The notes: a model not told the origin generated them from the sequence alone. A stretch of DNA of 64,000 nt from Candidatus Edwardsbacteria bacterium RifOxyA12_full_54_48 (GCA_001777915.1 MFFN01000007.1:4807-68806), one strand, 5' to 3'; counted from the first letter of the stretch, positions 11,501-57,888 are shown. Program-made: numbers and translations.

Positions 11501-12294
11501 CAGCAAAAGGCTCTAAGGCAATTGCCGCGCCATTAGTAAAAGCCTACCCAATGTCTGTTGATCCGGTGCCATGTTTCTATGTAGACTTGGGAACCGAAGA
11601 AGCGGGCAATTTTACTATCCAGAAAAAAGGCACGTTTTACTATGGATTGCATCCTGGTTTTACTGTAGATTATCACCCATCAATGCTTAAATATAATTTC
11701 CAAAATCTGGATAAAAACAAACGCTACAGAATTAAAGTTACATATTATCATGAATTTGATAAAGCCATTAAACAAACGCTATCAGTAGACAAAACCTTTA
11801 ATGCAAAATCCAATATTGAGCCCAAAACGGTTGTTACCGAAGAACATTGGATTCCCAATAGTTGTATAAAAGATGGGCAGATAGAGGTAACGATAGCCAA
11901 AATTATTGGTGAATATGCGGTTTGTTCGGTTATAGCTCTCTATGAATATGACCGGGATTGCGACGGTAAAACCTCCGAAGACATCGCCGAAAGCACCAGC
12001 AAGACAGTTAATGTATACAGCTATGAGCTGATGCAGAACTACCCCAACCCCAATACCGGCAAAACGGCCATCAAATATCAATTAGCCCAGCCGGGGAAAG
12101 TCAACCTGAAAATCTACAACACCTTGGGGCAAGTGGTAAAAACCTTGGTTTCGCAGGAACAGCAACCAGGATATTATAATGTAGCCTGGGGTGGTAGAGA
12201 TAATACCGGCAAAACAACAGCCAATGGTGTGTATTTCTACAGATTAGAAGCTGGCGATTTTAAAGCCACCAAGAAGATGGTAGTGATCAGGTAA
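8581..12294 (+). CDS. Very large secreted protein with BNR/Asp-box-like repeats and a T9SS (Por) C-terminal sorting domain
   Basis: 1237 aa with signal peptide. Asp-box-like 'YSIDGGYNWTAI' and 'SSSIDDCETWS'. N-terminal 'NHEGDWEHINVV' segment of uncertain family. C-terminal ~85 aa 'NYPNPNTGKTAIKYQL...KIYNTLGQVVKTL...GVYFYRLEAGDFKATKKMVVIR' matches the T9SS CTD pattern. AT-rich 5' half. Confidence 0.7.
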   Translation: MIIMFLKQIFIALLLSASICSAADSDGNGVPDEVEQALVERFKPCVVLPYSDRGVAPEPVDIMHVNSYITGYNSVREYYYKVPKLWVSFYALAGGDYCGTRPLFRVYQQLYIDYLATWDMPITFATGKFSNVTSETYTYSGYIPDSDYKNQKYAIRLHADYGGPDNGGGYYDQPGGWYDAYLNGRTVTSGTASFTWDKGSNYPATTYAHLFVESGETTIQYYFFYPFNDGWNNHEGDWEHINVVLTGQDPATAQIKRIYYYFHDLCTISWPTGTEPSGYQNFYNVLDGTHPVVFVGGSLSAAGGAGEGSHGSYPTFGIWPDIKYYQDEAVTTHTDYSKYIHYNSINAQIIKGREDYDYNVNPEMSWLGANIRWGHICVASPGDWQQTFDVGQRSPKGPAWQETWRNNYAGYTAYYGPPYSVPYSWTWPTDNTAPTVAINYPSSGSYFIKSRQYRIQWYATDNIGGTNGIKNCFLYYSIDGGYNWTAISGANPILNYNWFNWTVPDVESKNCKIKVSAYDAMGYSAETISPTFTIGSIFAVPTISGSVVSSSSKAELPDVRLASNVNKPYADQAKYKPRYCEFLWAGRVYNSSIIDCGTYYSANILNEAVSLPRTYTAKWVYNIWEGGVVVGMVEGPISSSITVYPPNPNDPVVAETNTSEATAYSNGKKIVVDNAGKIHSVFAISDSVYYSSSIDDCETWSTPTAVGIGKRPAIEITAANMPTICWNNGNRLYSTKKASGAFEEPQLIYTGPEGSEISYLSYVLDQNTNNSYLGWVDEGATGSSVLIATYNPSTSANLSPTPIDQGGADAFKSPSLALDKAGNLKIAWSHSGKVYYKDNSEFFEMGDNGIHPIVDTYGDKTTVVWQEEIAPNIYQVVKKTKGLTGWSDKEIISYPDSLNADFPVVAAAGQYVYSKNVNGSDYDLIWNAEYDNGWSIHTQNLSGAQGGISRYPSIAFKQGWPKSKLYVLWTEEMPAKGSKAIAAPLVKAYPMSVDPVPCFYVDLGTEEAGNFTIQKKGTFYYGLHPGFTVDYHPSMLKYNFQNLDKNKRYRIKVTYYHEFDKAIKQTLSVDKTFNAKSNIEPKTVVTEEHWIPNSCIKDGQIEVTIAKIIGEYAVCSVIALYEYDRDCDGKTSEDIAESTSKTVNVYSYELMQNYPNPNTGKTAIKYQLAQPGKVNLKIYNTLGQVVKTLVSQEQQPGYYNVAWGGRDNTGKTTANGVYFYRLEAGDFKATKKMVVIR

Positions 12295-23605: not shown

Positions 23606-26600
23606 ATGAAAAAGGTAGGTTTACTGGTAGCGGCCGTCATTATTCTGGCCGGATTGGCATCAGCCCAGACCACCATCTTCTCAGACAACATGACCGGCTT
23701 CCCCACGGGTTGGACGCTTTCGCCCACCACCGGTGGCTGGACCAAGACCTCCACCAAGTATTACAGTTCATCCTACAGCGCCATGTGCGACAATGTCAGT
23801 CCTTACGGGGCCAACCAGAACAATTATATAACCAAAACGGTCAGCCTATCGGGATATAGCAACGTCGCCCTGAAATTCTACATCTGGCAGTACAGCGAGA
23901 GCGGCTACGACTATATCCGGGTGCAGTACCTGGTGGGCAGCACCTGGACCACCGCCTGGCAGAGGGCCGGCAGCTATCAGTCTTGGGCCCAGCAGTCGGT
24001 CAGCATTCCCAACACCGCCACCCAGGTCCGATTTTATTTCAACTCCGACGGCAGCGTCCAGAACACCGGGGTGTACATCGATGACGTGGTCCTTACCGGG
24101 ACAGCGGCCACCGTTACCCAGAATGATGCCGGGACTGGCACCGATGCCGGCAACACCATAGCCACCGCTACCACGGTAAATCCGGGTTCGTGGACCGGCT
24201 GTTATTTGGATGCCACTGATCGAAACGACTATTACAAGTTTAACGTTACCGCGGGCCAGGTAATCAAACTAAAAGTAACCCCGCCCTCAACGGCCGACTA
24301 CGACCTCTATCTGCATAACACATCGCAGACCCAGGTTGGCGCCAGCACCCAGGGAACCGGCTTGGTTGACTCCATTGTCTACACCGCCACCACTACCGGC
24401 TACTGGTATTGCCGGGCCTACGAATACAGCGGCACCGGCAACTACTCATTGCTGATCTCGGTGAGCGGCGGGACCACCCCGACAACGATTCTGGCGATCA
24501 ACACGACCTCGTGGGCGCCGGTGGCGGCGGGCGGGACCAGCTCGGCAGTCAGCGTGACCAACAGCGGCACGAGCGGCAGCGTGATCGCCTACACGGTGTC
24601 CGACAACGCCACTTGGCTGACCACCTCGGCCGCCAGCGGCAATACCCCGGGCAGCTTCACCATGACGGCCTCGGCCAACACCGGTGCGGCGCGAAGCGCC
24701 ACGGTCACTGTGGCCGCGACCGGCCAGACCTCCAAGACCATCACCGTCAACCAGGCGGCAGCCAGCACCGGCGGAGCTGAATGGACCGTCATGATCTACC
24801 TGAACGCCGACAACAACCTGGAGACCGACGGGATCAACGATTTTCTGGAGATGGCCGCCGCCTCATACAGTTCGGGCAAGATCAACGTCATCGTTCAGAT
24901 GGACCGGGCCTCGGGCTACGCCACCACCTATGAGAATTGGACCGGCTGCAAGCGTTTCAAGATCGCCAGCGGGATGACCCCCACTGCGGCCTACCAGATA
25001 TCGGACCTGGGCGAGGTGGACATGGGCAGTCCCACCACCCTGGTCAACTTTGCCACCTGGGCCATCCAGAACTACCCGGCCAACCGCTATTCCCTGGTTA
25101 TGTGGGATCACGGCGACGGCTGGTACAAGACCGATGCCAGCCCCATCAAGGGCTTCTCCAACGACGACTCTCACGGTTCGGTGATCGGCATAGCCAACGG
25201 CGAATTCGCCAGCGCCATGGCCCAGATCAAGACCGCCCTGGGCCGGAACCTGGACCATATCGGCTGGGATGCCTGCCTGATGGGCATGTGGGAGGTGCTG
25301 GACATATCCCGCAATTACGCCAACGTGGCCAACGTCTCCGAGGAGACCGAGGGGGCCGCCGGCTGGTATTACACCACCTGGCTGAACGTCATGAACACCA
25401 CCCCCACCACCAGCGCCATTGACATGGGCAAAGCCATCATCAACGGCACCACTCAATCGACCCTGTCGGTGGTGGACCTGACCCTGATCTCCAATCTGAC
25501 CACCAAGGTCAACACCCTGGCCACCGAGCTGATGGCGACCCGGGGGGCCGGCCTGGGCGCCAGCATCAGCACGGCGCTTAACAATACCCTCAAGTTCTCC
25601 ACCAGCTATTTTTCATATCACATAGATCTGTCCGACTTCGCCGCCAAGGTCAAGGCCGCCATCACCACCCGGCCCACCCTGACCACCGCCTGCGACAACG
25701 TCATCAGCGCGGTGACCTCGGCGGTCAAACTGTACAAGAACTCCTCCACCTACGCCAATGCCCGGGGCATCGCGGTCTATCACTGCAAGATCGACGGCTC
25801 CAATTACGATACCGCCTACAACAGCCTGCCCATCGCCTCCAGCACGGTGTGGGATGAGTACATCAAGGGCGGCTCCAGCGGCGGAACCACCGCAAATTAC
25901 ACCAAGAGCACCGCCACCTACAGCTGGGATGCCTCGGCCACCACGGCCACCGGCCTGACCGGGGACGACCAGAGCGTCAGCAAGTCCATCGGTTTTGCCT
26001 TCAACTTCTACGGCACCAGCTATACCACCGTCAACATCTGTTCCAACGGGTTCCTCAATTTCGGCACCAGCTCCACCGCCTACACTCCGGCCGCCATCCC
26101 CAACACTGCGGCCCCCAACGCCCTGATCGCCGGCTTGTGGAGGGACCTTAACGTATCGGGCGGCGGAACCATCACCTACTACTCTTCGGCCACCAAATTC
26201 GTGGTGTCATTCAACGCCGTCAAGAACTACTCCAACACCAGCCTGCAAACCTTCCAGATGATCCTGACCCCCGACGGCAAGATCAAGATCCAGTGGGGTG
26301 GCATCACCACCGAGACCTATGCTTCGGGGGTGGAGAACCAGGGCGGCACGCTGGGCGTGGCGGCCACCGCCGCGGCCAATTCGGCGGCGCTGTTCACCCC
26401 GCCGGCGGCCTGGAGCAGCCCGATCAATGAGAATGAATTGGAGACCAGGCTCAATCCGCAGGGGATGCCGCTATCCAACCAGCTGTTCCAGAACGCCCCC
26501 AATCCGGTCAGATATAAAACCCTGATCGCCTTCCAATTGGAGAAGCCGGGCGCTGTTTCCCTGAAGATCTACAATCTCAACGGACAGCTGGTCAGAACCC

Positions 26601-26749
26601 TGGCCTCGGGGCAGCATAATTCCGGATATCATCAGGCCATGTGGGACGCCAAGGATGATGCCGGAAGGAAGGTGGCTGACGGAGTATATATCTATAAGCT
26701 GGCCTGCGGCGAGTTCAACCACGCCAAAAAAATGGTGCTGGTCAAATAA
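23606..26749 (+). CDS. Secreted clostripain-like (peptidase C11-type) cysteine peptidase with pre-peptidase domain and T9SS C-terminal sorting domain
   Basis: 1047 aa with signal peptide. 'EWTVMIYLNADNNLE', 'LVMWDHGDGWY' (putative catalytic His) and 'IGWDACLMGMWE' (putative catalytic Cys) resemble C11-family signatures. C-terminal 'NAPNPVRYKTLIAFQL...KIYNLNGQLVRTL...GVYIYKLACGEFNHAKKMVLVK' T9SS CTD. Confidence 0.7.
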   Translation: MKKVGLLVAAVIILAGLASAQTTIFSDNMTGFPTGWTLSPTTGGWTKTSTKYYSSSYSAMCDNVSPYGANQNNYITKTVSLSGYSNVALKFYIWQYSESGYDYIRVQYLVGSTWTTAWQRAGSYQSWAQQSVSIPNTATQVRFYFNSDGSVQNTGVYIDDVVLTGTAATVTQNDAGTGTDAGNTIATATTVNPGSWTGCYLDATDRNDYYKFNVTAGQVIKLKVTPPSTADYDLYLHNTSQTQVGASTQGTGLVDSIVYTATTTGYWYCRAYEYSGTGNYSLLISVSGGTTPTTILAINTTSWAPVAAGGTSSAVSVTNSGTSGSVIAYTVSDNATWLTTSAASGNTPGSFTMTASANTGAARSATVTVAATGQTSKTITVNQAAASTGGAEWTVMIYLNADNNLETDGINDFLEMAAASYSSGKINVIVQMDRASGYATTYENWTGCKRFKIASGMTPTAAYQISDLGEVDMGSPTTLVNFATWAIQNYPANRYSLVMWDHGDGWYKTDASPIKGFSNDDSHGSVIGIANGEFASAMAQIKTALGRNLDHIGWDACLMGMWEVLDISRNYANVANVSEETEGAAGWYYTTWLNVMNTTPTTSAIDMGKAIINGTTQSTLSVVDLTLISNLTTKVNTLATELMATRGAGLGASISTALNNTLKFSTSYFSYHIDLSDFAAKVKAAITTRPTLTTACDNVISAVTSAVKLYKNSSTYANARGIAVYHCKIDGSNYDTAYNSLPIASSTVWDEYIKGGSSGGTTANYTKSTATYSWDASATTATGLTGDDQSVSKSIGFAFNFYGTSYTTVNICSNGFLNFGTSSTAYTPAAIPNTAAPNALIAGLWRDLNVSGGGTITYYSSATKFVVSFNAVKNYSNTSLQTFQMILTPDGKIKIQWGGITTETYASGVENQGGTLGVAATAAANSAALFTPPAAWSSPINENELETRLNPQGMPLSNQLFQNAPNPVRYKTLIAFQLEKPGAVSLKIYNLNGQLVRTLASGQHNSGYHQAMWDAKDDAGRKVADGVYIYKLACGEFNHAKKMVLVK

Positions 26750-31293: not shown

Positions 31294-31321
31294 AAATGAT
31301 GCAGTTCAGCAAGGAGTGATC

Positions 31322-35259: not shown

Positions 35260-35958
35260 ATGGAAATAAAAGGCTTCATCGAAACATCGCTGATCGACTG
35301 GGACGGAAAGATCGTCTCGGTCCTTTTTCTTCCCGGCTGCAACTTCCGCTGTCCGTTCTGCCACAATCATGTTTTGGTCAAGCACCCGGAGCAGATCGCC
35401 GACGTCCCCTGGAAACGCATAGAAACGTTTTTAAAGGGCAAGAAGGGCTGGATAGACGGGGTGGTGATCACCGGGGGTGAGCCCACCATCCACCAGGATC
35501 TGATGCCCCTGCTGACGAAACTGAAGGAAATGGGCCTGCCGGCCAAATTAGACACCAACGGCAGCAACCCGGCCCTGTTAAGGGAGATAATAGACCTGGG
35601 CCTGGTAAAATTCATCGCCATGGACATCAAGGCCTCTTTCGACGGATCCTATGACCGGGCCTGCGGGGTTGCCGTAAACAAAGAGAATATCAGGGAAAGC
35701 ATCGGCCTGATCATGTCCTCCGGCCTGGAGTATGAGTTCCGCACCACCATTGTTCCGCAATATCACGATCTGGATTCGGTTGAAAATATGGCAAAAGAGA
35801 TAAAAGGGGCAAAAAAGTGGGTTTTACAGCAGTTTGTCCAAACCAATGCCGACGACGAGGGGCTACGTAGTCTGCCGCCATATGATGAGGAATACCTGGA
35901 GGAGATGAAAAAGAGGGCGAAAGGATTGGTGGAAAGGGTGGTTTTAAGGGGAATATAA
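35260..35958 (+). CDS. nrdG: Anaerobic ribonucleotide reductase activating protein-like radical SAM enzyme
   Basis: 232 aa. Radical-SAM cluster motif 'PGCNFRCPFCHN'; 'GVVITGGEPT'. Confidence 0.75.
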   Translation: MEIKGFIETSLIDWDGKIVSVLFLPGCNFRCPFCHNHVLVKHPEQIADVPWKRIETFLKGKKGWIDGVVITGGEPTIHQDLMPLLTKLKEMGLPAKLDTNGSNPALLREIIDLGLVKFIAMDIKASFDGSYDRACGVAVNKENIRESIGLIMSSGLEYEFRTTIVPQYHDLDSVENMAKEIKGAKKWVLQQFVQTNADDEGLRSLPPYDEEYLEEMKKRAKGLVERVVLRGI

Positions 35959-36892: not shown

Positions 36893-37942
36893 ATGCTTTT
36901 TGGAAAAAAACCAGCCACCATAGGTTTGGACATAGGCAGCAGCCAGATAAAGATCGTCGAGATCCAGAAGACCGGCAAGGGGCTGTCGCTGGTCAATTAC
37001 GGGATCGCTCCGCTGCTGCCGGAGGCCATCGTCGAGGGCGAGATCATGGACCGGACCCTGGTGATAGACACCATCAGGACCCTTTTGGAGACCAGGCAGA
37101 TAAAAAGCAATAATGTGATAACTGCCGTCTCCGGCCGGGGCGTCATCGTCAAGCGGATCAATATGGACAAGATGAAGGAGCAGGAGGCCCGGGAGAGGAT
37201 CAAGTGGGAGGCCGAACAGCATGTGCCGTTCGAGATCTCCGATGTGGTGCTGGATTTCCAGATCATCAACCCCGATTCGGGCAACAACCAGATGGAAGTG
37301 CTGCTGGTGGCGGCCAGGAACGAGACGGTGAACGTCCATCTGGACCTGCTGTCCGGGGCCGGCTTGAACCCGATCCTGCTGGATTACGGGGCCTTTGCCG
37401 TGCAGAATGCCTTCGAGGCCAGTTACGAAATGCCGGCCGACGAGATCATAGCCCTGGTCAATATCGGGGCCGATAACACCAACATCAATTTTGTCAAGAA
37501 CGGCGTGCCCTATTTCACCCGGGACCTCCCCATGGCCAGCAACTCCTGCCTGCAACTGATGCAGAAGAACCTGGGGATCTCCTACGAGCAGGCCTCCGAG
37601 TTGATCAAGGGCGAGACGGTGTCCGACGTCAGCCAGGAATCGGCGGCCTCGGTGTTCCAGTCCTTCTCCGACGATTTTGCCTCCTCCATAGAGCGAACCC
37701 TCTCCTTCCTGGCCATGTCCGGCGGGGGAGAGAGGATGAGCCGGATATATATGTCGGGCGGCGGGGCCCTGATCCCGTCACTTCAGGATCATCTTAAGGA
37801 GAGGTTCGGGATCCCGGTGGAGATCATAAACCCGTTACAAAAGATCAGCTATGATCCGGGCCTGTTCGGAGCCGTAGCCAGCGAAAAGGTTTCCCCCATC
37901 TTGACCCTGGCCATCGGCCTGGGGCTTAGGGAGGTAAAATAA
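36893..37942 (+). CDS. pilM: Type IV pilus assembly ATPase-like protein PilM
   Basis: 'IGLDIGSSQIKIVEI' actin-like N-terminus; 349 aa. Confidence 0.85.
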   Translation: MLFGKKPATIGLDIGSSQIKIVEIQKTGKGLSLVNYGIAPLLPEAIVEGEIMDRTLVIDTIRTLLETRQIKSNNVITAVSGRGVIVKRINMDKMKEQEARERIKWEAEQHVPFEISDVVLDFQIINPDSGNNQMEVLLVAARNETVNVHLDLLSGAGLNPILLDYGAFAVQNAFEASYEMPADEIIALVNIGADNTNINFVKNGVPYFTRDLPMASNSCLQLMQKNLGISYEQASELIKGETVSDVSQESAASVFQSFSDDFASSIERTLSFLAMSGGGERMSRIYMSGGGALIPSLQDHLKERFGIPVEIINPLQKISYDPGLFGAVASEKVSPILTLAIGLGLREVK

Positions 37943-38592
37943 TGATACAGATTAATTTAATCCGGGATCGCAAGGTAGAGAGAGTGGCCGGTGCCAAACC
38001 GGCCGGAGCCGGACGCAGCTTTTCATTACCCAAGCTTCCTTTCAATGTCGGCATCTTGGCCAGCGTTCTGGGGGTGGTCATTGTGCTGGTGGTCATGGTT
38101 TTGACCATGATCTCGCAGAAGGCCAAGATAGCCAACCTGGAATCCAAGATCAAGGGTTATAATGAAGAACTTGCAAAGCTGGCCGGTCCCAAGCGGCTGG
38201 TGGATGATTATCTTAAAAAGCAGGCCGAGGTGAACACCAAGCTTAACGAAATAGCCTCCATCGACAAAACCCGGTTCTATACCGTCACTTTGTTGGATCA
38301 ATTGAGCCAGGCCCTGCCGGATTATCTCTGGCTTACCAGCATGAAGGATGACAAGGATTTGATCTCCATGGAAGGAATGACCTTCTCCAACCTTATCGTG
38401 GCTGATTTCATGGACCGCCTCAAGGGTTCGGGATATTTTTCAAATGTTGAATTAACCCAAACCACCAAAGCCACCAGCGAGGGGCGCGATCTGGTGAAAT
38501 TCTCCATCACTTCAAGATACACCGAGAACCCGAGCAAACCCGTCAGCCCTGGGGAAACGACTGGCCAAACAGCCGGAAAGGGGTCAAAATGA
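37942..38592 (+). CDS. pilN: Type IV pilus assembly protein PilN
   Basis: 'MIQINLI' N-terminus, single TM helix, coiled-coil; adjacent to pilM. Confidence 0.75.
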   Translation: MIQINLIRDRKVERVAGAKPAGAGRSFSLPKLPFNVGILASVLGVVIVLVVMVLTMISQKAKIANLESKIKGYNEELAKLAGPKRLVDDYLKKQAEVNTKLNEIASIDKTRFYTVTLLDQLSQALPDYLWLTSMKDDKDLISMEGMTFSNLIVADFMDRLKGSGYFSNVELTQTTKATSEGRDLVKFSITSRYTENPSKPVSPGETTGQTAGKGSK

Positions 38593-39188
38593 GCCTAGAT
38601 ATCAAAGATCCCAAGATACAAATAACCATCGGCTTGATACTCTTCGGGCTGATTCTAGCCGGGTTATTCTTCAAGTTCAGCTATCAGCCTTCTCAAAAAA
38701 GAATTCAAGGGCTTTCTGTCGAGGAGGCCAAGCAGCGTCAGGAGCTTGAGCAGGTCCGGGCCGCCGTGGCCAGGCTCCCCGAATTGGAGGAGCAGTACAA
38801 GGCCCTGGAGAAAAAATGGGGAAAGGCTCAGGAGTTGCTGCCCACCGATAGCGAAATTCCCAGCCTGCTTAAAAAGATCACCAATGCCGGGATCGAATCA
38901 GGGGTAAGGTTCCTGGTTTTCAAGCCGGGGAAACTGGCCTCAGCCACCCAGCTTTCAGCGGCCATCCCGGTCACCATGTCGGTAATCGGCAATTTTGATC
39001 AGATAACCACCTTTATGGCCAAGCTGGGTAATTTGTCAAGAATTATAATTTCGTCAAATATAAAAATCAATCCTAATAATGATCCGATACGTACCATTAA
39101 AGCCGATTTCACGGCCAATGCTTACGTATTCAAATCAGGAGGAGATCAAGCCAGTGCAAAAGCTAAAACTTCTCGCAAACCCAGGTAG
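38589..39188 (+). CDS. pilO: Type IV pilus assembly protein PilO
   Basis: Single N-terminal TM helix plus coiled-coil; operon position between pilN and pilP. Confidence 0.65.
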   Translation: MSLDIKDPKIQITIGLILFGLILAGLFFKFSYQPSQKRIQGLSVEEAKQRQELEQVRAAVARLPELEEQYKALEKKWGKAQELLPTDSEIPSLLKKITNAGIESGVRFLVFKPGKLASATQLSAAIPVTMSVIGNFDQITTFMAKLGNLSRIIISSNIKINPNNDPIRTIKADFTANAYVFKSGGDQASAKAKTSRKPR

Positions 39189-39636
39189 CCTTTTAATTAT
39201 CGTTTTGGCCCTGGCGTCTGTCGGCTATGCCGCAGACCCTCCAGCGGCTACCGGGACGATAGACCTGAAGGCGGCCGGTGAGGATACTCTTTTTAGAGCC
39301 CAGAACTATGTTTATGAACCAGCCGGACGAAGGGATCCTTTTAAATCCCTGGTCCAGAAAAAGGGCGAGGGTTCGGGGGTTACGGATGTCAGCACTCTGG
39401 ATGTGAGCAACATGACCCTCACCGGCATCATCTGGGGGCCTTCGGGAAGACTGGCTTTGATTAATGACACACAAGGCGTAGGTTATATAATCAAACCCGG
39501 GGACCAGGTGATCGGCGGAAAGGTTTTTGCCATAACCGACTCTTCGGTGGTCTTCGAACAGGGCGATCCAGGAAGCACGGTAAAGTTTGTTGTTCCGTTA
39601 ACTGAAAGTAAAAGCAAAGGGAGCAAAAGAAAATGA
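39154..39636 (+). CDS. pilP: Type IV pilus assembly lipoprotein PilP (start uncertain)
   Basis: GTG at 39154 with AGGAGGA 10 nt upstream; signal peptide 'LLIIVLALASVGYA'; operon position before pilQ. Confidence 0.5.
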   Translation: MQKLKLLANPGSLLIIVLALASVGYAADPPAATGTIDLKAAGEDTLFRAQNYVYEPAGRRDPFKSLVQKKGEGSGVTDVSTLDVSNMTLTGIIWGPSGRLALINDTQGVGYIIKPGDQVIGGKVFAITDSSVVFEQGDPGSTVKFVVPLTESKSKGSKRK

Positions 39637-41585
39637 GCTATCATAGAAGCAACAAAATGCTGCCGTTGGCCGTTGCGGCTCTGCTGTCAGTATTTTCCCT
39701 GGCCAATGCAGCCAAAGTGCTGGATATTGCGGTCAAGAAATCCGAAGGGGTCACCCAGGTGGTGATCACCGGGGACGATATCCTTGATTCCAAGGATTTC
39801 ACCCTCAGCAATCCCGACCGGCTGGTGGTTGACATCAAGGGAGCCAGCATTGCCTTCGGCAATAAGACCATGACCGTCAACAAGGGCGGCATCACCACCA
39901 TCAGCACCAGCCAGTTCGACCGGGAGGGAGGGATCGCCAGGATCGTGATAGAGATGGGCATAAAGCCCAACTATCTGCTGATGACCGAAGAGAATGACAT
40001 CATTGTTGCCCTGACCACCAAAGACACCTCTCCCTTTGCCGAATGGAAGGCTAGCGCCGCTCCATCAGAGATGGCTGCAACGACTGCCCCCCAGACCATG
40101 GTGCCGCCCAGCATGCCGGCTCCGCCGCCTCCGATGGTTGAGGAAACACCCGCCGCTCCGGTGGTGCCGGTGACCTCCACGCCGGCTCCCTCAACGCCCA
40201 CTCTGGTGATGGAAGAACAGCCGGCGGCCCCGGTGGTGCCGATGACTTCTACGCCGTCCGCACCCAGCACCCCTCCTCCGGTTATAGAGGAAGTGCCGGC
40301 TGCTCCGATCTACGCGGCAGCGCCCACCCCTCCGGAGAAAATGGCCCTTCCTGCAACGCCGATTCAGCCCAAGGCCGCCTATGTCGAACCGCAAAAGCCA
40401 AGATACCGTTCGGCCTCCTCCGGCGGCTTGTCGGGCGGCAGGTCTGTCTCCATGGAATTGGAGAATGCTGACGTTATAACTGTTTTAAGGGCCATGGCCG
40501 AATACAGCGGCAAAAACCTGATCGTGGGCAACGATGTCAAGGGTTCGGTCAGCATGAGGCTGCATAACGTTCCCTGGGCCCGGGCCTTTGAGGAGATAGT
40601 CAAGGCTGCGGGGTTGGTGGTCGAGGAATCGGGCGGCATCATCAGGGTAATGAGCCCCAAACAGGCTACCGAAAACATGCGAATGAGAGAGCAGGGGCAG
40701 GAACTGGTCACTGTGGTATATCCCATAGAGTTTGCGGTAGCAAATGAGATCACCGGGTCCTTAAACAAGATCCTAAGCTCCCGGGGTTCCATCCAGGTTG
40801 ACAAGCGCACCAATTCTCTGGTGATCAACGAAGTGTCCTTCAAGCAGACCGAGATAGCCGAACTGATCAGATTGTTGGATACTGCCACCCAGCAGGTGGA
40901 GATCATGGCCCGGATCGTGGATGTGGATATGGACGTGACCAAGGATCTGGGGATCAACTGGAACGTCTCCAATATCGCCAGCTATGATGCCAATGCCGAG
41001 TTGCAGAACGCCAGCGTTCCCCAGCTACTGCCGGCTGGCACCAGGCCATCGATGACAGTGGGGACCATCCGCTCCTTCGCCCAGATATCGGCCACCCTGT
41101 CGGTACTGGAGGCCAAGCGCAAAGCCAACACCATCTCCAATCCCCGGATCACCACGGTCAATAATAAAGAGGCCAAGATAGTGGGCGGTAAGAAGATACC
41201 GATCTCCCTAAGGGACGAAAGCGGCAACACCGTCACCCAGATGTACACCATCGGCATGGTGCTGACCACCACCCCCCATATCAATTCCTCGGAAAATGTG
41301 ACCCTGGATGTCAAGACCGAGATCAGCGACCTGGATCCCACGGCCACCATCTTGGGCGGTGTGGTGATACTGACCAACGAGGCCAGCACCCAGATAGTGC
41401 TGAACGACGGGGAGACGGCAGTGATCGGCGGATTGTTGCAGACCAAGGCCGGCAAATCCCAGAGCGGCATTCCCATTCTGATGGATATCCCGTTCATCGG
41501 CGCCCTGTTCAGATCTACCACCACCTCAACCGCCAAGCGTGAGATCCTGATATTCCTGACGCCCCATATTATAAAATCAAAATAA
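39633..41585 (+). CDS. pilQ: Type IV pilus secretin PilQ (AMIN-like N-terminus, Pro-rich linker, secretin domain)
   Basis: C-terminal secretin signature 'GETAVIGGLLQTKAGKSQSGIPILMDIPFIGALF...REILIFLTPHII'. Confidence 0.85.
   Translation: MSYHRSNKMLPLAVAALLSVFSLANAAKVLDIAVKKSEGVTQVVITGDDILDSKDFTLSNPDRLVVDIKGASIAFGNKTMTVNKGGITTISTSQFDREGGIARIVIEMGIKPNYLLMTEENDIIVALTTKDTSPFAEWKASAAPSEMAATTAPQTMVPPSMPAPPPPMVEETPAAPVVPVTSTPAPSTPTLVMEEQPAAPVVPMTSTPSAPSTPPPVIEEVPAAPIYAAAPTPPEKMALPATPIQPKAAYVEPQKPRYRSASSGGLSGGRSVSMELENADVITVLRAMAEYSGKNLIVGNDVKGSVSMRLHNVPWARAFEEIVKAAGLVVEESGGIIRVMSPKQATENMRMREQGQELVTVVYPIEFAVANEITGSLNKILSSRGSIQVDKRTNSLVINEVSFKQTEIAELIRLLDTATQQVEIMARIVDVDMDVTKDLGINWNVSNIASYDANAELQNASVPQLLPAGTRPSMTVGTIRSFAQISATLSVLEAKRKANTISNPRITTVNNKEAKIVGGKKIPISLRDESGNTVTQMYTIGMVLTTTPHINSSENVTLDVKTEISDLDPTATILGGVVILTNEASTQIVLNDGETAVIGGLLQTKAGKSQSGIPILMDIPFIGALFRSTTTSTAKREILIFLTPHIIKSK
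40132..40310 (+). repeat. Tandem ~75-bp repeats encoding the Pro/Ala/Thr-rich linker of PilQ
   Basis: Units translate to 'MVEETPAAPVVPVTSTPAPSTPTLV' / 'MEEQPAAPVVPMTSTPSAPSTPPPV' / 'IEEVPAAPI'. Confidence 0.7.
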
Positions 41586-47314: not shown

Positions 47315-47340
47315 AAAAGGGCCGGAAAACCGGCCCTTTT
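47315..47340. terminator. Bidirectional terminator
   Basis: 'aaaagggccgg-aaaa-ccggccctttt'. Confidence 0.7.
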
Positions 47341-47341: not shown

Positions 47342-48442
47342 TCATTTCAGCATTACCATTCTCTTCAAGTCAACCGTCCCCTCCTTAACCGAGAGCCGGT
47401 AAAAATATATTCCCGGCGGGAGCAGCCTGCCTGCCTGATCGGTGCCGTTCCATTCCACTCTGTGACTGCCCGAAGCGTTTTCATTCAGATCAATGGTCCT
47501 GACAGCCTGCCCCAGCAGGTTGAAGATCTCGATCCGGGCCCGGCCCGGCGAAGCCAGGGAATAACTTATGGCGGTCTTATCCTTAAAGGGGTTAGGGTTG
47601 TTCTGGTACAATCTGTTTCTACCGGCCATGGTAAGCGGAGGCTCGCCCTCTGCTCCCAAGGCCGGGAAATAGGCCCGGCGGATAAGGGTGCTGTCCAGGA
47701 CGTAGGGATTGACCTTGCCCTGCTGGTAGGCGGCGATCTTCTTGGTGCGAGCTATCTCCCGGGCATCGGCCGGATCGCTGACATGCCAGGCATACAAAAT
47801 ATCCCGCTGGCCGGTCCACCAGGAATCACTGGTGTCGCCCAGCTGCCAGAAGGTCAGGATGTAATACATAGCCCGGGCGGTGTTGCCCTTCTGAATTTCC
47901 CGGGTCTCAAACCTGACATTGGTTAAAAGCTCCGCATACTGATCAATAACAGAAGATGGAATGGTCGTGGTAATTACATTATTGCGATACCATTTATTTG
48001 TCTGGTTATCAGGAATATCTCCAAAAGGAAGAGTTCCCCGGTCCCCGTTCACCTGGACCTCGGTGGGAAACAGGTGGTGCAGGTCGGAGACGGCGGTGCT
48101 GGACGACAGCATACTTTGGGGCCAGGTATGCTCGCAGTTGATGTCATGATCATAGGCCCAGGTGCTGGGATCCTGGCCGGGATCCATATATATCTTATAT
48201 CCGCTGTAGACGCACTCCAGGCTGTCGTTTAGCTTATCTATCTCCCCATACATAACATCCCTACCAGCATCGTAGCCCAGATTGGCGGTGGATTTATATG
48301 ACGAGATCAACGAATTCCGCAGGGTGGCGCCGGTCTGCCCGGGGAAAATGGTGGAGTCCGGCGGGACGGTCCCGGCGGAAACAGATCCGGCCGAAAATAG
48401 TTGCGCCGAAATCAGCAACAGGGAGATCTTAAAATATTTCAT
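47342..48442 (-). CDS. Secreted endonuclease I family nuclease with T9SS C-terminal sorting domain
   Basis: 'NCEHTWPQS', 'DLHHLFPTEVQVNGDRGT' and 'KVNPYV' match endonuclease I (EndA/Vvn) signatures ('EWEHVVPAW', 'DMHNLQPSVGEVNGDRGN', 'GNHNPYV' as recalled). C-terminal 'NNPNPFKDKTAISYSL...EIFNLLGQAVRTI...GIYFYRLSVKEGTVDLKRMVMLK' CTD. Signal peptide. Confidence 0.8.
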   Translation of the reverse strand: MKYFKISLLLISAQLFSAGSVSAGTVPPDSTIFPGQTGATLRNSLISSYKSTANLGYDAGRDVMYGEIDKLNDSLECVYSGYKIYMDPGQDPSTWAYDHDINCEHTWPQSMLSSSTAVSDLHHLFPTEVQVNGDRGTLPFGDIPDNQTNKWYRNNVITTTIPSSVIDQYAELLTNVRFETREIQKGNTARAMYYILTFWQLGDTSDSWWTGQRDILYAWHVSDPADAREIARTKKIAAYQQGKVNPYVLDSTLIRRAYFPALGAEGEPPLTMAGRNRLYQNNPNPFKDKTAISYSLASPGRARIEIFNLLGQAVRTIDLNENASGSHRVEWNGTDQAGRLLPPGIYFYRLSVKEGTVDLKRMVMLK

Positions 48443-48538
48443 GTCCATTCCTTTGATCATCAACCCAATTATCCCCCCGGAACGTCAAAAAGTCAAGCCC
48501 TTTGCAATCGCCGGGTATTTTATGGTAAACTTAAGGCC

Positions 48539-52076: not shown

Positions 52077-52688
52077 ATGAGAAATACAATAATATTCGTA
52101 ATCATCGCAACAATATTTTATTCGTGCGATAAAATAGAAGAAAATAATAATACAAAAGTGGATATTAAAAGGAATACGCAAACTATACAAGATTCAACAA
52201 TATATTGTGCTTTAAAATACAATCTTGAAATTTTTACAATGGCACACAGTACATCAAATAATATTGATTCTATTATAAAGTATTATGAATTAAATGAAAA
52301 TAATAAAATTGAAAGCAAAGCAAAGTCATTTCCGGAAACGCAAGAAGATGAACATCTTTTAAATACATTCATTGGTATAATTATGAAAGGGAAATTAAAT
52401 GTTACATATATAATAAAAATGACGCTGATTAATAAAAACAATGCTGAACTAGGGGAGGTGTTTATTGATGTTCTTGCAAAACATTGGCAAAACCCAGAGA
52501 AAGATTTCATTAAGGCCGTTATCAGCTTGCCAGATTCAGAGTGTGCAAGAATTATTTATAGCACAATTCCGGAAGAGCCAAAAGAAGTAAAAGAAATTAT
52601 AAAAAAGGTAGATAAATTATCGGAAATAAAAAATCTAAAAGGCTATGATTTATTAAAGAAAATATTAATTGAATTAGCTAATAGATAA
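52077..52688 (+). CDS. Hypothetical lipoprotein (AT-rich ORFan)
   Basis: 203 aa. Lipobox 'IFYSCDK'; Lys/Asn/Ile-rich; strongly AT-rich relative to neighbours. Confidence 0.5.
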   Translation: MRNTIIFVIIATIFYSCDKIEENNNTKVDIKRNTQTIQDSTIYCALKYNLEIFTMAHSTSNNIDSIIKYYELNENNKIESKAKSFPETQEDEHLLNTFIGIIMKGKLNVTYIIKMTLINKNNAELGEVFIDVLAKHWQNPEKDFIKAVISLPDSECARIIYSTIPEEPKEVKEIIKKVDKLSEIKNLKGYDLLKKILIELANR

Positions 52689-52800
52689 TATATTACCCCG
52701 GCGACGGCTGATCCGCAGCATCCTTGGCCACGGCCTGCAATTCCTTCCTGCATTTTATATTCACTTTGCTCATCAACGCCAATCAGCACTTTATGTGGGT

Positions 52801-53645
52801 GTCGCATTAGCTCTGCTGCTGAATAAAGAAGGCCGTTAGGAATTTGGCATTGTCTGAGCAAAGCGAGTTTGTCAAATTTAGGCCTTCGGTCTTAAGGCTT
52901 CCGGGCAGAGGTATAGCGACAGGTTCTCTTTGCCACTTTCTCTTCAAAGAGAAAGTGGGGAACCATGGACCCTCTTACTTTTCTGCAGGCCAGAAAAGTA
53001 ACAAAAGAACCTTGTCCGCCCGGCAATTTCCGGCAGGAATGATACTCACGGACTAAATTCCTTGACCGGGGCGGGGAGATAAGCTCTGCAATGAATTTTT
53101 CACGCCCGTTTTGCTGGGGCAAAATTGCCGAAGGCGGGGAACCGAGTACCTAGGTCGCATCAGCTCTGCTGCTGACGAGCTTTTGACCTCATCCTTCCCT
53201 CTCCTAATGCTTTATGAGAGGGGTAGGGGAGAGGTGCGGGACAAAAAAGAAAAAGAACAGCATAATTCCCCAAAACGTGCCTTACTTTCTCTTGTGACCA
53301 AGAGAAAGTAACAAAGAGAAGTCTTGCCCGCCCGACAATTTCCGGCAGGAATGATATCCCCGGGCTAAATTCCTTGACCAGGGCTGGGTGCTATGCTCTG
53401 CAATGAATTTTCACGCCCGCTCCCGCCATAGCAAAATTGCCGAAGGCGGGGGAACGGGTAATGTCCGGTCGCATTAGCTCTGCTGCTGAATAAAGAAGGC
53501 ACTTAGGAATTTGGCATTGTTTGAGCGAAGCGAGTTTGTCAAATTTAGGCCGACGTCATAGGACTGCCAAGCAGAGGTTTAGCGACGAGCTGTTGACCTC
53601 ACCCTTCCCTCTCCTAATGCTTTAGGAGAGGGGCAGGGGAGAGGT
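52801..53645. repeat. Mosaic array of nested ~60-150 bp direct repeats (non-coding)
   Basis: R1 'gtcgcattagctctgctgctgaataaagaagg...gtttgtcaaatttaggcc' at 52801-52884 and 53469-53552; R3 (~150 bp, 'ccgcccggcaatttccggcaggaatgata...gcaaaattgccgaaggcgggg') at 53003-53153 and 53318-53468; R2 ('...gacctcatccttccctctcctaatgctttatgagaggggtaggggagaggtg') at 53154-53237 and 53583-53645; common 22-nt head 'gtcgcatYagctctgctgctga' three times. Confidence 0.8.
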
Positions 53646-53766
53646 GTTATAAGAGAAAGCGGAGGCTGGTTTTGAAAGAAAATAACAAAGGGACGATCAA
53701 ATGATCGTCCCTTAAATATTCCTGGCGCCCGCTCAAGGCGGACTACTGCCCAGCGAGAAGTCAAAC

Positions 53767-53842
<76 letters not shown>

Positions 53843-53984
53843 ACAAAGTGCGGTAATGATAACATATCGATAGAGGGTTAGTCAATATCTTTAATGCCCG
53901 CAATGCGGCAGATCCTGGCTTGACATGCCGCGCCGGGGTTGTTATAATCATATGAAATTTAATGAATAACATTGATATCCAGAT

Positions 53985-55073
53985 ATGAAAAAGAACATTT
54001 TAATTTCGGCTTTCCTTGCCGGGCTTGTCTCCCTGGCCCTGGCCGGCTCATTCGGGAAACAGCCCAAACCAGCCATCCAGAAAGGCCCCTACCTGTCCTG
54101 GGACGACGATCTCCGGACCACCATGACCGTCAGCTGGGAGACCAATACTCCTGTTCCCGGGAAACTGGCCTACGGACCCCGGGGTAAAATGAACTACATC
54201 CTGCGGGACGACCAAGCCGGGACCCTGCACCACTTGAGGATAAAAGATCTCAAGCCCGACACCCGCTACTATTACCAGTTGCTGAACCTGTCGGCCCCGG
54301 TCTGCAGTTTTAAGACCGCACCCCGGGAGATGCGGGATTTCAAATTCGTCATCTACGGCGACACCCGGACCTTTCCGGAGCAGCACAAAAAGGTGATCGC
54401 GGCCATAACCCAATACAACCCGGAGTTCCTGATCCACACCGGGGATTACATCCAGGACGGGCGGGTATGGGGCATGTGGCAGGAGTTCTTCGACGCCAGC
54501 CGGCCGTTCTCCTCCTTTATCCCTCTGATGACGGTGATCGGCAACCACGAACGGACCTGCGACAACTATGTGAAGCTGTTCGCCCTGCCCGGCAATGAAA
54601 GGTGGTATGCCTTCGATTATCTGAATGTTCACTTCATCATATTGAACAACGAAGAAAACTACCAGAAAGATTCCCAGCAATACCGGTGGTTCGAGGCCGA
54701 GATAAAACGATCCCGGCCGCTCTATAAATGGCTGTTCGTCCTCCAGCACCGCCAGACCTACTCCTCTGGCAAGCGGGGCAGCGACCAGGATATCCTGGAG
54801 AACCTGGAGCCGCTGTTCAGGAAATACCGGCCGGATGTGGTGTTCTGCGGGCACGAGCATTTTTACGAAAGGCAGCGGCGGGGCGGCGTCAACTATATCA
54901 TCACCGGCGGGGGCGGGGCCCCGCTGTACGACGTCAATCCAGGGGATTCCACCTTCCATGCCGAATCCAGCCTGCACTACTGCCAGGTCGAGGTCAGCGA
55001 CAGCGCCGCCAAGGTGCGGATGGTCCGGGTGGACGGCAGTTCGCCGGACAGTTTGGTGCTGAAGGCCAGATAG
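53985..55073 (+). CDS. Metallophosphoesterase (purple acid phosphatase-like) with N-terminal fibronectin-like domain
   Basis: 'FVIYGDTRT', 'IHTGDYIQDG', 'VIGNHE', 'CGHEHFYER' calcineurin-like phosphoesterase motifs; signal peptide. Confidence 0.8.
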   Translation: MKKNILISAFLAGLVSLALAGSFGKQPKPAIQKGPYLSWDDDLRTTMTVSWETNTPVPGKLAYGPRGKMNYILRDDQAGTLHHLRIKDLKPDTRYYYQLLNLSAPVCSFKTAPREMRDFKFVIYGDTRTFPEQHKKVIAAITQYNPEFLIHTGDYIQDGRVWGMWQEFFDASRPFSSFIPLMTVIGNHERTCDNYVKLFALPGNERWYAFDYLNVHFIILNNEENYQKDSQQYRWFEAEIKRSRPLYKWLFVLQHRQTYSSGKRGSDQDILENLEPLFRKYRPDVVFCGHEHFYERQRRGGVNYIITGGGGAPLYDVNPGDSTFHAESSLHYCQVEVSDSAAKVRMVRVDGSSPDSLVLKAR

Positions 55074-55240: not shown

Positions 55241-55819
55241 TTGATGAGAACATTTATTTCAATTATACTCTTATCGGCAGGGCTGCTTATCACGGCCACC
55301 TCTGCCGCCGGGGTGCTTAACTTCAAGCTAAAACCGCTGGAGGGGAAAAAGAAGGTCGAGCTGGCCAGGGTGCTGGAAACCGGCCCGGCCCTGATAGCCT
55401 TCTGGGCCACCTGGTGTCACCCCTGCCAGGAGGAGCTGATCCACATCCAAAAGCTTTACCAGATGTACGCCGACAGCGGGATGTCATTCTACGCCGTCTC
55501 CATCGACGACGCCAAGACCGCCGGCAGGGTCAAGGCGGTGGCCAAAGGGAAGCGGTTCACCCTGCCGATACTGCTGGACCCCGAGCAGGAGGCGATGAGG
55601 TCCTTCAGCCTGATCAACGTTCCCGGGGTCTATATCCTGGGCCGGGACGGGAAGCTGCTTTATCAGCATACCGGCTATAAGCCGGGAGACGAGGCGGCCT
55701 TGGAGGAGAACGTCAGGACGATCCTCAAACTCGCTCCGGGACCGACCGCTCCGGCCGCCGGTGATTCGACAGCCTGCGGGGTGGATTCTTCCTGCTGCCC
55801 GGTCAAGGAGGAAAAATGA
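55241..55819 (+). CDS. TlpA-like thiol:disulfide oxidoreductase (thioredoxin fold, secreted)
   Basis: 'ALIAFWATWCHPCQEEL' CxxC motif; signal peptide; Cys-rich C-terminal tail 'DSTACGVDSSCCPV'. Confidence 0.75.
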   Translation: MMRTFISIILLSAGLLITATSAAGVLNFKLKPLEGKKKVELARVLETGPALIAFWATWCHPCQEELIHIQKLYQMYADSGMSFYAVSIDDAKTAGRVKAVAKGKRFTLPILLDPEQEAMRSFSLINVPGVYILGRDGKLLYQHTGYKPGDEAALEENVRTILKLAPGPTAPAAGDSTACGVDSSCCPVKEEK

Positions 55820-57888
55820 GATTTAAAAAGGCCCTGGCGACGGTGGTGCTGCCCATCTGCTTGGCGTTGTCCCTGACCAGTTGCGGCAAGAAACTTCCCA
55901 CCGCGGTGATTTCAGACCAGGGGTATCCCCGCACAGTGCTGGTGGAGCTATTCACCTCCGAATTCTGCACCAACTGCCCGACGGCCGATCGGGCCGCCGA
56001 ACGCCTGGCCGCCGAGATGGGTGATTCCCTATGTCTGGTCGAAATGCATCCCAATAATTTCCTGTCGCTGGGTGACAGCCTGGGGACTGCGGCGGCCGAC
56101 ACCCTGGCCGGTGACTACCAATCCGGCCTATCGGTGACAGGACTTCCCTTCTTCTCCTGCGACGGGCTGGAGAATATGCTGGGAACCTCGGTCGACGACG
56201 AGGCCACCTATCAAAGCTACCGCCAGCTGGCGGATATCCGCAAGATCATCAAAAGCCCATTGAAACTGAACCTCGCCGCCCAGCTGGACCAGGATGCCAT
56301 AATCTACTCCGCCCAGATAACCGCCGGCGGTTCTGTGCCGCAAAACGGCGATCTGGGGCTGGTCCTGCTGGTGGTGGAGGATTCGGTCAGCGCCTACGGC
56401 AAGGTGTTCCGTTATGTGGCGCGTTCGCTGGCCCCCAATACTGAAGGCGACCGGCTAGATATTCTGCCGGCATCGACAGTTTCCCGAGCGGGCAGCATCA
56501 TAAAGAATTCCGGGTGGCTGCCCTGGCGGCTGTCCCTTATTGCTTACGTACGCAACAATGACACCAGGGAGATCGTCCAGGCGGCCAGGGTCCGCATCTA
56601 TGCCGCCACCACCGCCCCGGCAGCGCCCGCCTTGAATCTGCCGGTTGATGATGCGGTAAATCTGGCCCTGAGCCCGACCCTGAGCTGGCTGGCCAGCAGC
56701 GGCGCGGCCAGCTACACCCTGCAGTACGACACCGACAGCCTGTTCGGCGGGGCGGTATCCCAGAGCGGACTGACCGGGACCAGCCTGCAGATAAAAGGCC
56801 TCGGTAACGCCACCACCTATTACTGGCGGGTAAACGCCAGCAACAATGCCGGAGTATCCGGGTGGTCGGCGATCCGTTGCTTTACCACCACCGCCACTGC
56901 TTTGCCGGTTAAGCCGGTTCTGAATGCGCCGGCGAACGGCGACACCGGCGTCAGCAAAAGTCCCACTTTGATCTGGACTGCCAGCAGCGGGGCTTCAAAC
57001 TACGGACTGCAGGTGGCTACCAACAATTCTTTCCATCCCGCCAGCATGATCTATTCCCAATCAGGACTGACCGGCACCGGCCAGTCGATCCTGGGGCTTG
57101 ATCCCGGGATCGACTATTACTGGCGGGTCAATGCCTCCAATATCGCCGGGACATCAGCCTGGTCGGAGACCTGGTCCTTCACCACCACTACCAATCCGGC
57201 CCCCGAACCTCCGGTCTTGGTCTGGCCGGCCAACGGCGAGCTGAACTCCGGCACCAGTCCGGCGCTAAGCTGGAGTTCCAGCTACGGGGCCTACAGCTAT
57301 GCCCTGCAGGTCTCGCCCAGCAGCGACTTTCGGAGCCTGGTATACTATCAAAGCGGATTGCCCGATACCAGCCGCTCCGTTGCCGGCCTTGACTCCCTGA
57401 CCACCTATCACTGGAGAGCCAACGCCTCCAACGTTTACGGAGCCTCCGGCTGGTCCGATGCCTGGACCTTCACCGATGCCAGGGGGTACGGCTTCTCCCG
57501 GCTGATCTCGCCGGACTCGGCCACCAGGCTGCCGGACACCATCATCAGCTACAGCCTGTCCGACCCGGAAACCCCGGAGCTGGGGTTCCATATCTATCTT
57601 GCCAATCTCTCTTCCAAGATGAACATCTATGCCCAGGCCCCCACTTCGCTGAACTCCGATCCCCTTTTGTTCTGGGGATTCCTATGCACCGAAACCGGCT
57701 GCCAGGGGCCCAACGGGATCGCCACTGCAGTATTCAATGCCGGGACCACCCAGCACTGGACGGTGCATTTTAACTTCAACACCTTGCCGCCTCCGGAAGG
57801 ACTGCATTCCTTGATATTAAAGTTATGGGCCGCCGACAATCCGTCGCATATCATGACCCGTCGGCTGTATCTGGAGGTGCTGCCGTGA
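55816..57888 (+). CDS. Lipoprotein with N-terminal CxxC (thioredoxin-like) region and three fibronectin type III-like repeats
   Basis: Lipobox 'LTSCGKK'; 'ELFTSEFCTNCP'; three ~85-aa repeats each ending 'YYWRVNASN..G.SGWS' (e.g. 'TTYYWRVNASNNAGVSGWS', 'IDYYWRVNASNIAGTSAWS', 'TTYHWRANASNVYGASGWS'). Confidence 0.55.
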   Translation: MRFKKALATVVLPICLALSLTSCGKKLPTAVISDQGYPRTVLVELFTSEFCTNCPTADRAAERLAAEMGDSLCLVEMHPNNFLSLGDSLGTAAADTLAGDYQSGLSVTGLPFFSCDGLENMLGTSVDDEATYQSYRQLADIRKIIKSPLKLNLAAQLDQDAIIYSAQITAGGSVPQNGDLGLVLLVVEDSVSAYGKVFRYVARSLAPNTEGDRLDILPASTVSRAGSIIKNSGWLPWRLSLIAYVRNNDTREIVQAARVRIYAATTAPAAPALNLPVDDAVNLALSPTLSWLASSGAASYTLQYDTDSLFGGAVSQSGLTGTSLQIKGLGNATTYYWRVNASNNAGVSGWSAIRCFTTTATALPVKPVLNAPANGDTGVSKSPTLIWTASSGASNYGLQVATNNSFHPASMIYSQSGLTGTGQSILGLDPGIDYYWRVNASNIAGTSAWSETWSFTTTTNPAPEPPVLVWPANGELNSGTSPALSWSSSYGAYSYALQVSPSSDFRSLVYYQSGLPDTSRSVAGLDSLTTYHWRANASNVYGASGWSDAWTFTDARGYGFSRLISPDSATRLPDTIISYSLSDPETPELGFHIYLANLSSKMNIYAQAPTSLNSDPLLFWGFLCTETGCQGPNGIATAVFNAGTTQHWTVHFNFNTLPPPEGLHSLILKLWAADNPSHIMTRRLYLEVLP

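Follow-up and report, generated by a model that had tools for sequence, protein, structure and literature searches.

A predicted secreted nuclease of the endonuclease I family with a type IX sorting domain in Candidatus Edwardsbacteria

A stretch of 64,000 nucleotides from Candidatus Edwardsbacteria bacterium RifOxyA12_full_54_48 (GCA_001777915.1, MFFN01000007.1:4807-68806), hereafter called the window, contains on its minus strand a gene for a precursor of 366 amino acids (aa) with an N-terminal Sec signal peptide, a nuclease domain of the endonuclease I (EndA/Vvn/NucM) family and a C-terminal domain (CTD) assigned to the type A sorting domains that belong with type IX secretion systems (T9SS). 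We interpret the gene product as a secreted, sugar-non-specific and Mg2+-dependent nuclease that leaves the cell by the T9SS route, and we estimate the probability of this interpretation, including the full mechanism outlined below, at roughly 0.8. The data show the architecture and fold of the domains, the conservation of the active site and the occurrence of the tail as a module on unrelated proteins, and we infer export by the T9SS with good support.

According to the proposed mechanism, the 23-residue signal peptide would take the precursor through Sec to the periplasm, where it would fold. The immunoglobulin (Ig)-like CTD of approximately 85 residues would be recognized by a type IX translocon of the SprA/PorV type and direct the protein across the outer membrane, after which a PorU-type sortase would remove the tail, so that the nuclease would be set free or be anchored on the cell surface. 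Outside the cell, His105 would activate a water molecule, Asn132 and Glu104 would hold the Mg2+ of a beta-beta-alpha-metal site, and DNA, probably also RNA, would be cut to oligonucleotides. The likeliest use would be to scavenge nucleic acids from outside the cell as a source of phosphorus, nitrogen and carbon in the sediment or groundwater habitat, with remodelling of the biofilm matrix as a secondary possibility. Which substrate is preferred, DNA or RNA, and which role the enzyme has, scavenging or remodelling of the matrix, are judged by analogy with the behaviour of the family.

Catalytic domain and active site

The Pfam search identified Endonuclease_1 (PF04231) at residues 60-248 with a score of 81.2 bits (E 1.2e-22, cut-off 25), covering positions 42-231 of the 235 positions in the hidden Markov model (HMM). 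The NCBIfam model for T9SS type A sorting domains, TIGR04183, matched residues 283-360 with 34.3 bits against a cut-off of 23. An earlier note on this DNA had predicted an endonuclease I core fused to a C-terminal T9SS-type domain, and the architecture was confirmed by these two profile searches, with E-values well outside what chance would give. The note's reading of the protein as exported to the cell surface or medium is supported.

A structure model of the nuclease was built with AlphaFold2 on 45 homologues and reached a mean predicted local distance difference test (pLDDT) score of 87.8. The model displayed two well-defined domains separated by a disordered linker at residues 265-273, and the linker was variable in both length and sequence across the alignment of homologues. 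The folded nuclease domain spans approximately residues 30-260 and has the endonuclease I fold with a beta-beta-alpha-metal core. Glu104 and His105 are located at the end of the strand formed by residues 101-105, which is followed by a helix at residues 129-135 that contains Asn132. As modelled, these two elements represent the classic beta-beta-alpha-metal arrangement.

The same residues are recovered from sequence comparisons. In the motif I-x-x-E-H-x-x-P, the nuclease has I-N-C-E-H-T-W-P, which mirrors IEWEHVVP in Vvn and pairs His105 with Vvn His80, the general base of the beta-beta-alpha-metal site. Residues 119-135 (SDLHHLFPTEVQVNGDR) were aligned by phmmer to ADLHNLTPAIGEVNGDR of Vvn. 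Six residues (E104, H105, D120, H123, N132 and R135) were invariant across the 45 homologues, which are 38-83% identical to the nuclease. The possibility that the protein is an inactive pseudo-enzyme was rejected because the catalytic residues are invariant.

We compared the nuclease with Vvn (1OUO/1OUP), Vibrio cholerae Dns/EndA (2G7E, 2VND) and V. salmonicida endonuclease I (2PU3), and also with E. coli EndA. The strong similarity to EndA and Vvn that had been claimed in the earlier note is found at the level of profile and fold, where it is significant, and both Vvn and V. salmonicida endonuclease I are among the Foldseek matches of the model. Pairwise similarity is weak, however, with a phmmer score of 20.9 bits for Vvn (E 1.3e-3) and 17-22% identity to the Vibrio structures in structural alignments. 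The equivalog model for E. coli EndA (NF011716) yielded 24.2 bits, far below its cut-off of 372, and the protein is therefore a member of the family but not an orthologue of EndA. The Vibrio and E. coli enzymes also differ from the window protein in that they have no CTD and are either periplasmic or exported by other routes.

A further difference concerns the loop that carries Arg99 in Vvn. This loop of approximately 20 residues is Cys-rich, and Vvn has eight cysteines in four disulfides, whereas the window nuclease lacks the loop and its mature form contains two cysteines, C77 and C103. The EH and DLH motifs are separated by 15 residues, as compared to 34 in Vvn, with no intervening Arg. The Arg99 loop and the eight cysteines are a trait of the Vibrio/E. 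coli branch and not a general one in PF04231. The nuclease belongs to a divergent and compact subfamily of the endonuclease I family.

The earlier note had named the protein a DNase, which is too narrow, as characterized members of the family cut RNA too. That the protein is mainly an extracellular RNase rather than a DNase, similar to Bacillus subtilis Bsn of the same family, seems unlikely. The family includes a characterized RNase precursor, the R. anatipestifer homologue cleaves both RNA and DNA in the account given by a review of that species (PMC12398890), and the Arg99 loop that is absent here contacts the DNA backbone in Vvn, so that the substrate preference could differ. However, the Vibrio enzymes that cut DNA have a matching beta-beta-alpha-metal core and VNGDR motif, and the sequence does not tell the two substrates apart. 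A preference for RNA would refine the interpretation of the gene product as a secreted nuclease and would not replace it.

The C-terminal tail and the route of export

The tail of the nuclease is located at the extreme C-terminus (residues 280-366 of 366), with the Sec signal peptide (residues 1-23) at the opposite end of the precursor. It forms a compact, seven-stranded Ig-like beta-sandwich that is akin to the solved T9SS CTDs, among them those of Tannerella forsythia mirolase (8QB1) and of P. gingivalis PorU (6ZA2) and PorZ (5M11), at 14-22% identity. The Foldseek matches also include the CTD chain of NucA (8glk_D), onto which the tail was aligned with an E-value of 3.9e-4, a template modelling (TM) score of 0.61 relative to the target and 20% identity. 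In addition to TIGR04183, the tail matched the C-terminal end of the PorU sortase model in NCBIfam, and it matched the Pfam families FlgD_ig (43.5 bits, cut-off 27) and CHU_C (25.9 bits, slightly below the cut-off of 27). G311 in the loop between strands beta3 and beta4 is invariant in the 45 sequences, and K360 in the last strand is invariant in the three CTDs of the window and mostly K or R across the homologues. Mutagenesis in P. gingivalis showed that the Gly of the beta3-beta4 loop and the Lys of the last strand are required for secretion (PMC11285876).

A CTD HMM was built from the tails of the nuclease homologues and run on the six-frame translation of the window. Exactly three matches were obtained, all of them at the very C-terminal end of large exported proteins. 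Besides the nuclease, these are a 1237-aa protein without a recognized passenger domain, encoded by the open reading frame (ORF) at 8581-12294, and a 1047-aa clostripain-family (C11) peptidase encoded by the ORF at 23606-26749. The tail of the 1237-aa protein scored 95 bits with the CTD HMM, 41.1 bits with FlgD_ig and 30.4 bits with Por_Secre_tail, the latter being above the cut-off. The corresponding values for the C11 peptidase were 82.5 bits with the CTD HMM and 41.4 bits with FlgD_ig, and its catalytic domain matched Peptidase_C11 with 121.8 bits. The two tails are 42% and 41% identical, respectively, to that of the nuclease, whereas the three proteins are unrelated outside their tails. 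The C11 peptidase has BACON/MAM-like N-terminal parts.

A fourth tailed protein, a 704-aa M6-family peptidase with Pfam matches to FlgD_ig and Por_Secre_tail, is encoded 1.2 kb past the right edge of the window (contig L088, 11185-13299). Thus, tailed proteins are frequent in the genome, with three confirmed in the window and the M6 peptidase added within approximately 79 kb. The tail is modular, terminal and homogeneous within the lineage, and in this it behaves as a secretion tag and not as a FlgD hook-cap domain.

The architecture is widespread. PF04231 was combined with a tail of the T9SS/FlgD type in 91 of the 120 best homologues according to precomputed Pfam assignments, and the same tail was visible in the alignment for several of the remaining 29. 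Homologues with this architecture were found in Edwardsbacteria, Calditrichia, Bacteroidota, Gemmatimonadota, Marinimicrobia, Cloacimonadota, WOR-3 and Zixibacteria, and most of these lineages are placed within, or cluster with, the Fibrobacterota-Chlorobiota-Bacteroidota (FCB) group. The genome distribution was taken from the best 80 of 585 confirmed matches in species-representative genomes. These 80 were from Edwardsbacteria/UBP2, Calditrichia, Bacteroidota (Saprospiraceae, Lewinellaceae, Rhodothermales and Balneolaceae), Gemmatimonadota, Marinimicrobia, Cloacimonadota and WOR-3, and they include one cultured strain, Flavilitoribacter nigricans, whose homologue (strain DSM 23189) is 40% identical. 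The domain combination is thus already known, common in related bacteria and experimentally exemplified, and the gene represents nothing new in this respect.

Two T9SS cargo proteins of cultured Bacteroidota are particularly similar in design. The R. anatipestifer protein AS87_RS02625 is, as summarized in the review, a functional endonuclease I that has RNase activity as well as a DNase activity dependent on Mg2+ (Shen et al. 2023, in PMC12398890), and the same summary describes its contribution to adhesion, invasion and virulence. By that description it resembles the window protein in combining endonuclease I with a T9SS tail, and a Bacteroidota homologue among the matches, P0117, is 38% identical to the window nuclease. 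R. anatipestifer is an animal pathogen, whereas the window protein is from an uncultured candidate phylum of groundwater and sediment with no host context. The second protein, F. johnsoniae NucA (Fjoh_4723), is a predicted nuclease and a T9SS type A cargo that was found bound to SprA/PorV (PDB 8GLK; PMC10994853). NucA and the window protein both consist of a nuclease and a type A CTD, but the structural comparison covers the CTD, which is the part of NucA in the solved structure, and the host of NucA has a proven T9SS. CTDs are partly species-specific and not always interchangeable (PMC11285876).

Several observations weigh against export by the T9SS or against the function proposed here. No T9SS machinery gene was detected in the window or in approximately 15 kb of flanking sequence, where PorV, PorU, SprA/Sov, GldK/L/M/N, PorT and others were sought with Pfam in 30 further window proteins and in precomputed Pfam assignments for flanking genes on related contigs. 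The NCBI taxonomy lists Edwardsbacteria among the unplaced candidate phyla and not in the FCB group, and Edwardsbacteria is missing from the list of phyla with a possible T9SS in PMC11285876. The score of the nuclease tail with Por_Secre_tail (PF18962) was 25.5 bits, which is slightly below the cut-off of 27 and lower than that of FlgD_ig. The neighbouring genes point to no biological role. Finally, since the Arg99 and the Cys-rich loop of Vvn are absent and only two cysteines remain, the sequence makes nuclease activity likely but does not guarantee it.

Neither SprA-sized ORFs (at least 1800 aa) nor quartets of gldKLMN-like size were present in 84 loci (1.27 Mb), and the ORFs listed for six loci of the Edwardsbacteria type included no recognizable T9SS component. 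A profile of the three window CTDs retrieved 36 short CTD-only ORFs from a set of 5.8 billion proteins, a result that is uninformative on the PorU/PorZ machinery. In the literature on the distribution of the T9SS in candidate phyla, we found no statement on Edwardsbacteria.

It is quite improbable that the protein is instead a nuclease that stays in the periplasm for housekeeping or defence, in the manner of E. coli EndA or Vvn, with a FlgD-type tail that serves in binding or oligomerization and with no functional T9SS in the cell. Such a function would agree with the ranking of FlgD_ig over Por_Secre_tail, with the FlgD structures among the top sequence and Foldseek matches, and with the lack of any T9SS component in approximately 79 kb from a phylum that is undocumented as a carrier of the system. 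However, the tail is always at the extreme C-terminus and is found on at least three otherwise unrelated proteins of the window, and the occurrence of the same Pfam matches on the M6 peptidase beyond the window is the behaviour of a sorting tag. The TIGR04183 score is above the cut-off, the functionally required Gly and Lys are conserved, and there are no flagellar genes nearby. The Prokaryotic Genome Annotation Pipeline (PGAP) already labels such proteins of Edwardsbacteria as "T9SS type A sorting domain-containing protein".

We see a slim chance that Edwardsbacteria might lack a canonical T9SS core and that the tail is read by another, undescribed route for export across the outer membrane or for surface anchoring. 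This possibility is raised by the dense set of tails in combination with the placement outside the FCB group and the absence from the published lists of T9SS phyla that we consulted. In a milder version, Edwardsbacteria has a T9SS, which, if true, would only add one candidate phylum to those known to have the system. A role as a secreted DNase toxin against competing bacteria can practically be dismissed. In its favour, the protein is an exported nuclease, and the R. anatipestifer review (PMC12398890) discusses nucleases that are secreted as factors in competition. Against it, no small immunity-type gene is adjacent, the neighbouring genes have housekeeping functions and lie on the other strand, the position beside the ABC-F gene is kept in relatives that are 48-66% identical, which points to a vertically inherited core gene and not to a mobile cassette for a toxin, and the T9SS delivers its cargo to the surface of the cell or the medium, with no injection into target cells.

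The gene and its surroundings

The positions of the features discussed here are listed in Table 1. The ORF of the nuclease is genuine, with a TGA stop codon at 47342-47344 and an ATG at 48442-48440 on the minus strand. Further in-frame start codons are located at 48463 (TTG), 48460 (ATG) and 48448 (ATG), and forms of 366 aa and 372 aa are both in use in public records. We favour the ATG at 48442 over the start at 48460 that is used by some gene callers because of the position of the Shine-Dalgarno-like AAAGGA. The promoter candidate, if correctly called, would also make 48442 more plausible than 48460. This candidate is a match to the sigma-70 consensus, which may not be the promoter type of Edwardsbacteria, and it falls in the divergent intergenic region of 75 bp that is common to the nuclease and ABC-F genes. 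The starts at 48442 and 48460 yield an identical mature nuclease.

The signal peptide was judged by inspection and from a hydrophobicity profile. Cleavage is predicted to occur after VSA, between MKYFKISLLLISAQLFSAGSVSA and GT, and inspection revealed no lipobox cysteine. The hydrophobic core comprises residues 3-10 with a mean Kyte-Doolittle value of 1.8 to 2.2. In the structure model, the N-terminus forms a helix at residues 2-20 followed by a low-confidence linker at residues 20-29.

Table 1. Positions in the window of the nuclease gene, its predicted signals and domains, and the related C-terminal domains.
Feature	Position	Strand	Basis
Coding sequence, 366-aa precursor	47342..48442	-	ORF list and sequence; product identical in sequence with the public entries P0122 (366 aa) and P0121 (372 aa)
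Predicted Sec (type I) signal peptide, residues 1-23, MKYFKISLLLISAQLFSAGSVSA	48374..48442	-	Read from sequence
Sigma-70-like promoter candidate, TTGACT-17 nt-GATAAT	48468..48496	-	Consensus scan, 10/12 positions
Shine-Dalgarno-like AAAGGA, 6 nt 5' of ATG 48442	48449..48454	-	Read from sequence
Endonuclease I catalytic domain, residues 60-248	47699..48265	-	Pfam match
Codons Glu104-His105 (GAG CAT), equivalent to Vvn Glu79-His80	48128..48133	-	Invariant in 45 homologues
Codon Asn132 (AAC) in VNGDR motif, equivalent to Vvn Mg2+ ligand Asn127	48047..48049	-	phmmer alignment with Vvn
Flexible linker between nuclease domain and CTD, approximately residues 262-279	47606..47657	-	pLDDT <50 at residues 265-273
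Ig-like beta-sandwich at the C-terminus (residues 280-366), assigned to the T9SS type A sorting domains (CTD)	47345..47605	-	
Predicted intrinsic terminator, AAAAGGGCCGG-TTTT-CCGGCCCTTTT	47315..47340	-	Terminator scan: 11-pair stem, 7 G-C pairs
Same CTD in the 1237-aa protein	12025..12291	+	
Same CTD in the 1047-aa C11 peptidase	26480..26746	+	

The terminator is located directly 3' of the nuclease stop codon, between the nuclease gene and a convergent gene for a GT9 glycosyltransferase. With its own promoter-like site, ribosome-binding site and terminator, the nuclease gene looks like a self-contained unit. It is antiparallel to both of its neighbours, the GT9 gene and the divergently oriented gene for an ABC-F ATPase, and the flanking genes also include those for an amidohydrolase and an MsbA-like exporter. 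An operon link with the neighbours was rejected because of the opposite strand and the gene's own promoter-like site and terminator. The divergent pairing of the nuclease and ABC-F genes is kept in the relatives at 48-66% identity, and the nuclease is therefore a stable core gene of the lineage. Recent horizontal acquisition was also rejected: although the gene has a GC content of 0.54 and its neighbours have approximately 0.61, it stays paired with the ABC-F gene down to 48% identity.

The nuclease is identical to proteins from metagenome-assembled genomes of Candidatus Edwardsbacteria, including OGF17897.1, HAD82031.1 and OGF04843.1. The identical records are deposited as "hypothetical protein", and relatives at 80-83% identity are labelled "endonuclease". 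The window matches parts of GCA_036747415.1 and of a metagenome contig in the European Nucleotide Archive (ENA) at 100% identity. Genomes of the Edwardsbacteria type also have a second endonuclease I paralogue, which is larger (750-910 aa), has a T9SS-like tail and is encoded just downstream of dnaG and rpoD (L007, 9959-12466; L013, 9956-12679; L042, 7969-10227), and there are thus at least two nuclease paralogues per genome.

Genes for the assembly of type IV pili (pilM, pilN, pilO, a small ORF and pilQ for the secretin) form a cluster at 36893-41585, at a distance of 6 kb from that of the nuclease. In Vibrio cholerae, an extracellular endonuclease I and the DNA-uptake pilus jointly control natural transformation.

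The tailed 1237-aa protein is encoded in a low-GC island at 7470-12294 (approximately 0.40-0.43, as compared to approximately 0.60 in the surroundings), together with two small signal-peptide proteins without a Pfam match (7470-8153 and 8203-8562). In the identical public contig L085, only the last 609 aa of the 1237-aa protein are annotated, and 1.9 kb of open frame is uncalled.

Other segments of unusual composition or distribution were observed in the window. The segment at 52077-53985 consists of a low-GC ORF at 52077-52688, with a GC content at third codon positions (GC3) of 0.22 and no Pfam match, and a non-coding stretch. It adjoins the sole tRNA gene of the window, a tRNA-Met(CAT) gene at 53767-53842 on the minus strand, and differs from the otherwise 99%-identical contig L001; it looks like a small, strain-variable insertion beside the tRNA gene. 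A cassette of three genes at 55241-59399 encodes an AhpC/TlpA-like thiol-disulfide oxidoreductase, a 690-aa lipoprotein with fn3 domains and a DUF6029 protein. It is placed between a purple-acid-phosphatase-like gene and ubiA both here and in GCA_036747415.1, whereas the close relatives L001 and L002 lack it and have the two flanking genes side by side.

Three low-GC ORFs (GC3 approximately 0.3) are located at 32800-34182. The longest of these (33394-34182), which was the one scanned, had no Pfam match. They separate nrdD, for the anaerobic ribonucleotide reductase, and a CreD-like gene (28757-32575) from a radical-SAM activase-like gene (35260-35958), and look like an insertion that splits a functional pair. 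The low-GC gene at 62089-63048 (GC3 0.30) is surrounded by high-GC genes, and its product has a YARHG domain and matches DUF4424 weakly. The gene is kept in the public genomes that are identical to the window and diverges in L001, where the DNA around the gene is 85-89% identical. Large signalling proteins are encoded at 119-3013 and 17838-23244. These include an adenylate/guanylate cyclase of 964 aa with a fused AAA_16 ATPase and a 1251-aa Ser/Thr kinase with AAA_16 and TPR domains, the gene of which is immediately upstream of a gene for a GAF-containing sigma-54 activator on the minus strand.

Implications for Edwardsbacteria

The finding on the nuclease matters little beyond annotation. The records now deposited as "hypothetical protein" (OGF17897.1, OGF04843.1 and others) could be renamed "secreted endonuclease I with a T9SS type A sorting domain". 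The compact and disulfide-poor form of the enzyme could have minor interest as a small secreted nuclease. Given how frequent tailed proteins are, it would be worthwhile to look for T9SS machinery across whole genomes of Edwardsbacteria. For the biology of this uncultured phylum of groundwater and sediment, the analysis adds the degradation of extracellular nucleic acids to its predicted lifestyle.
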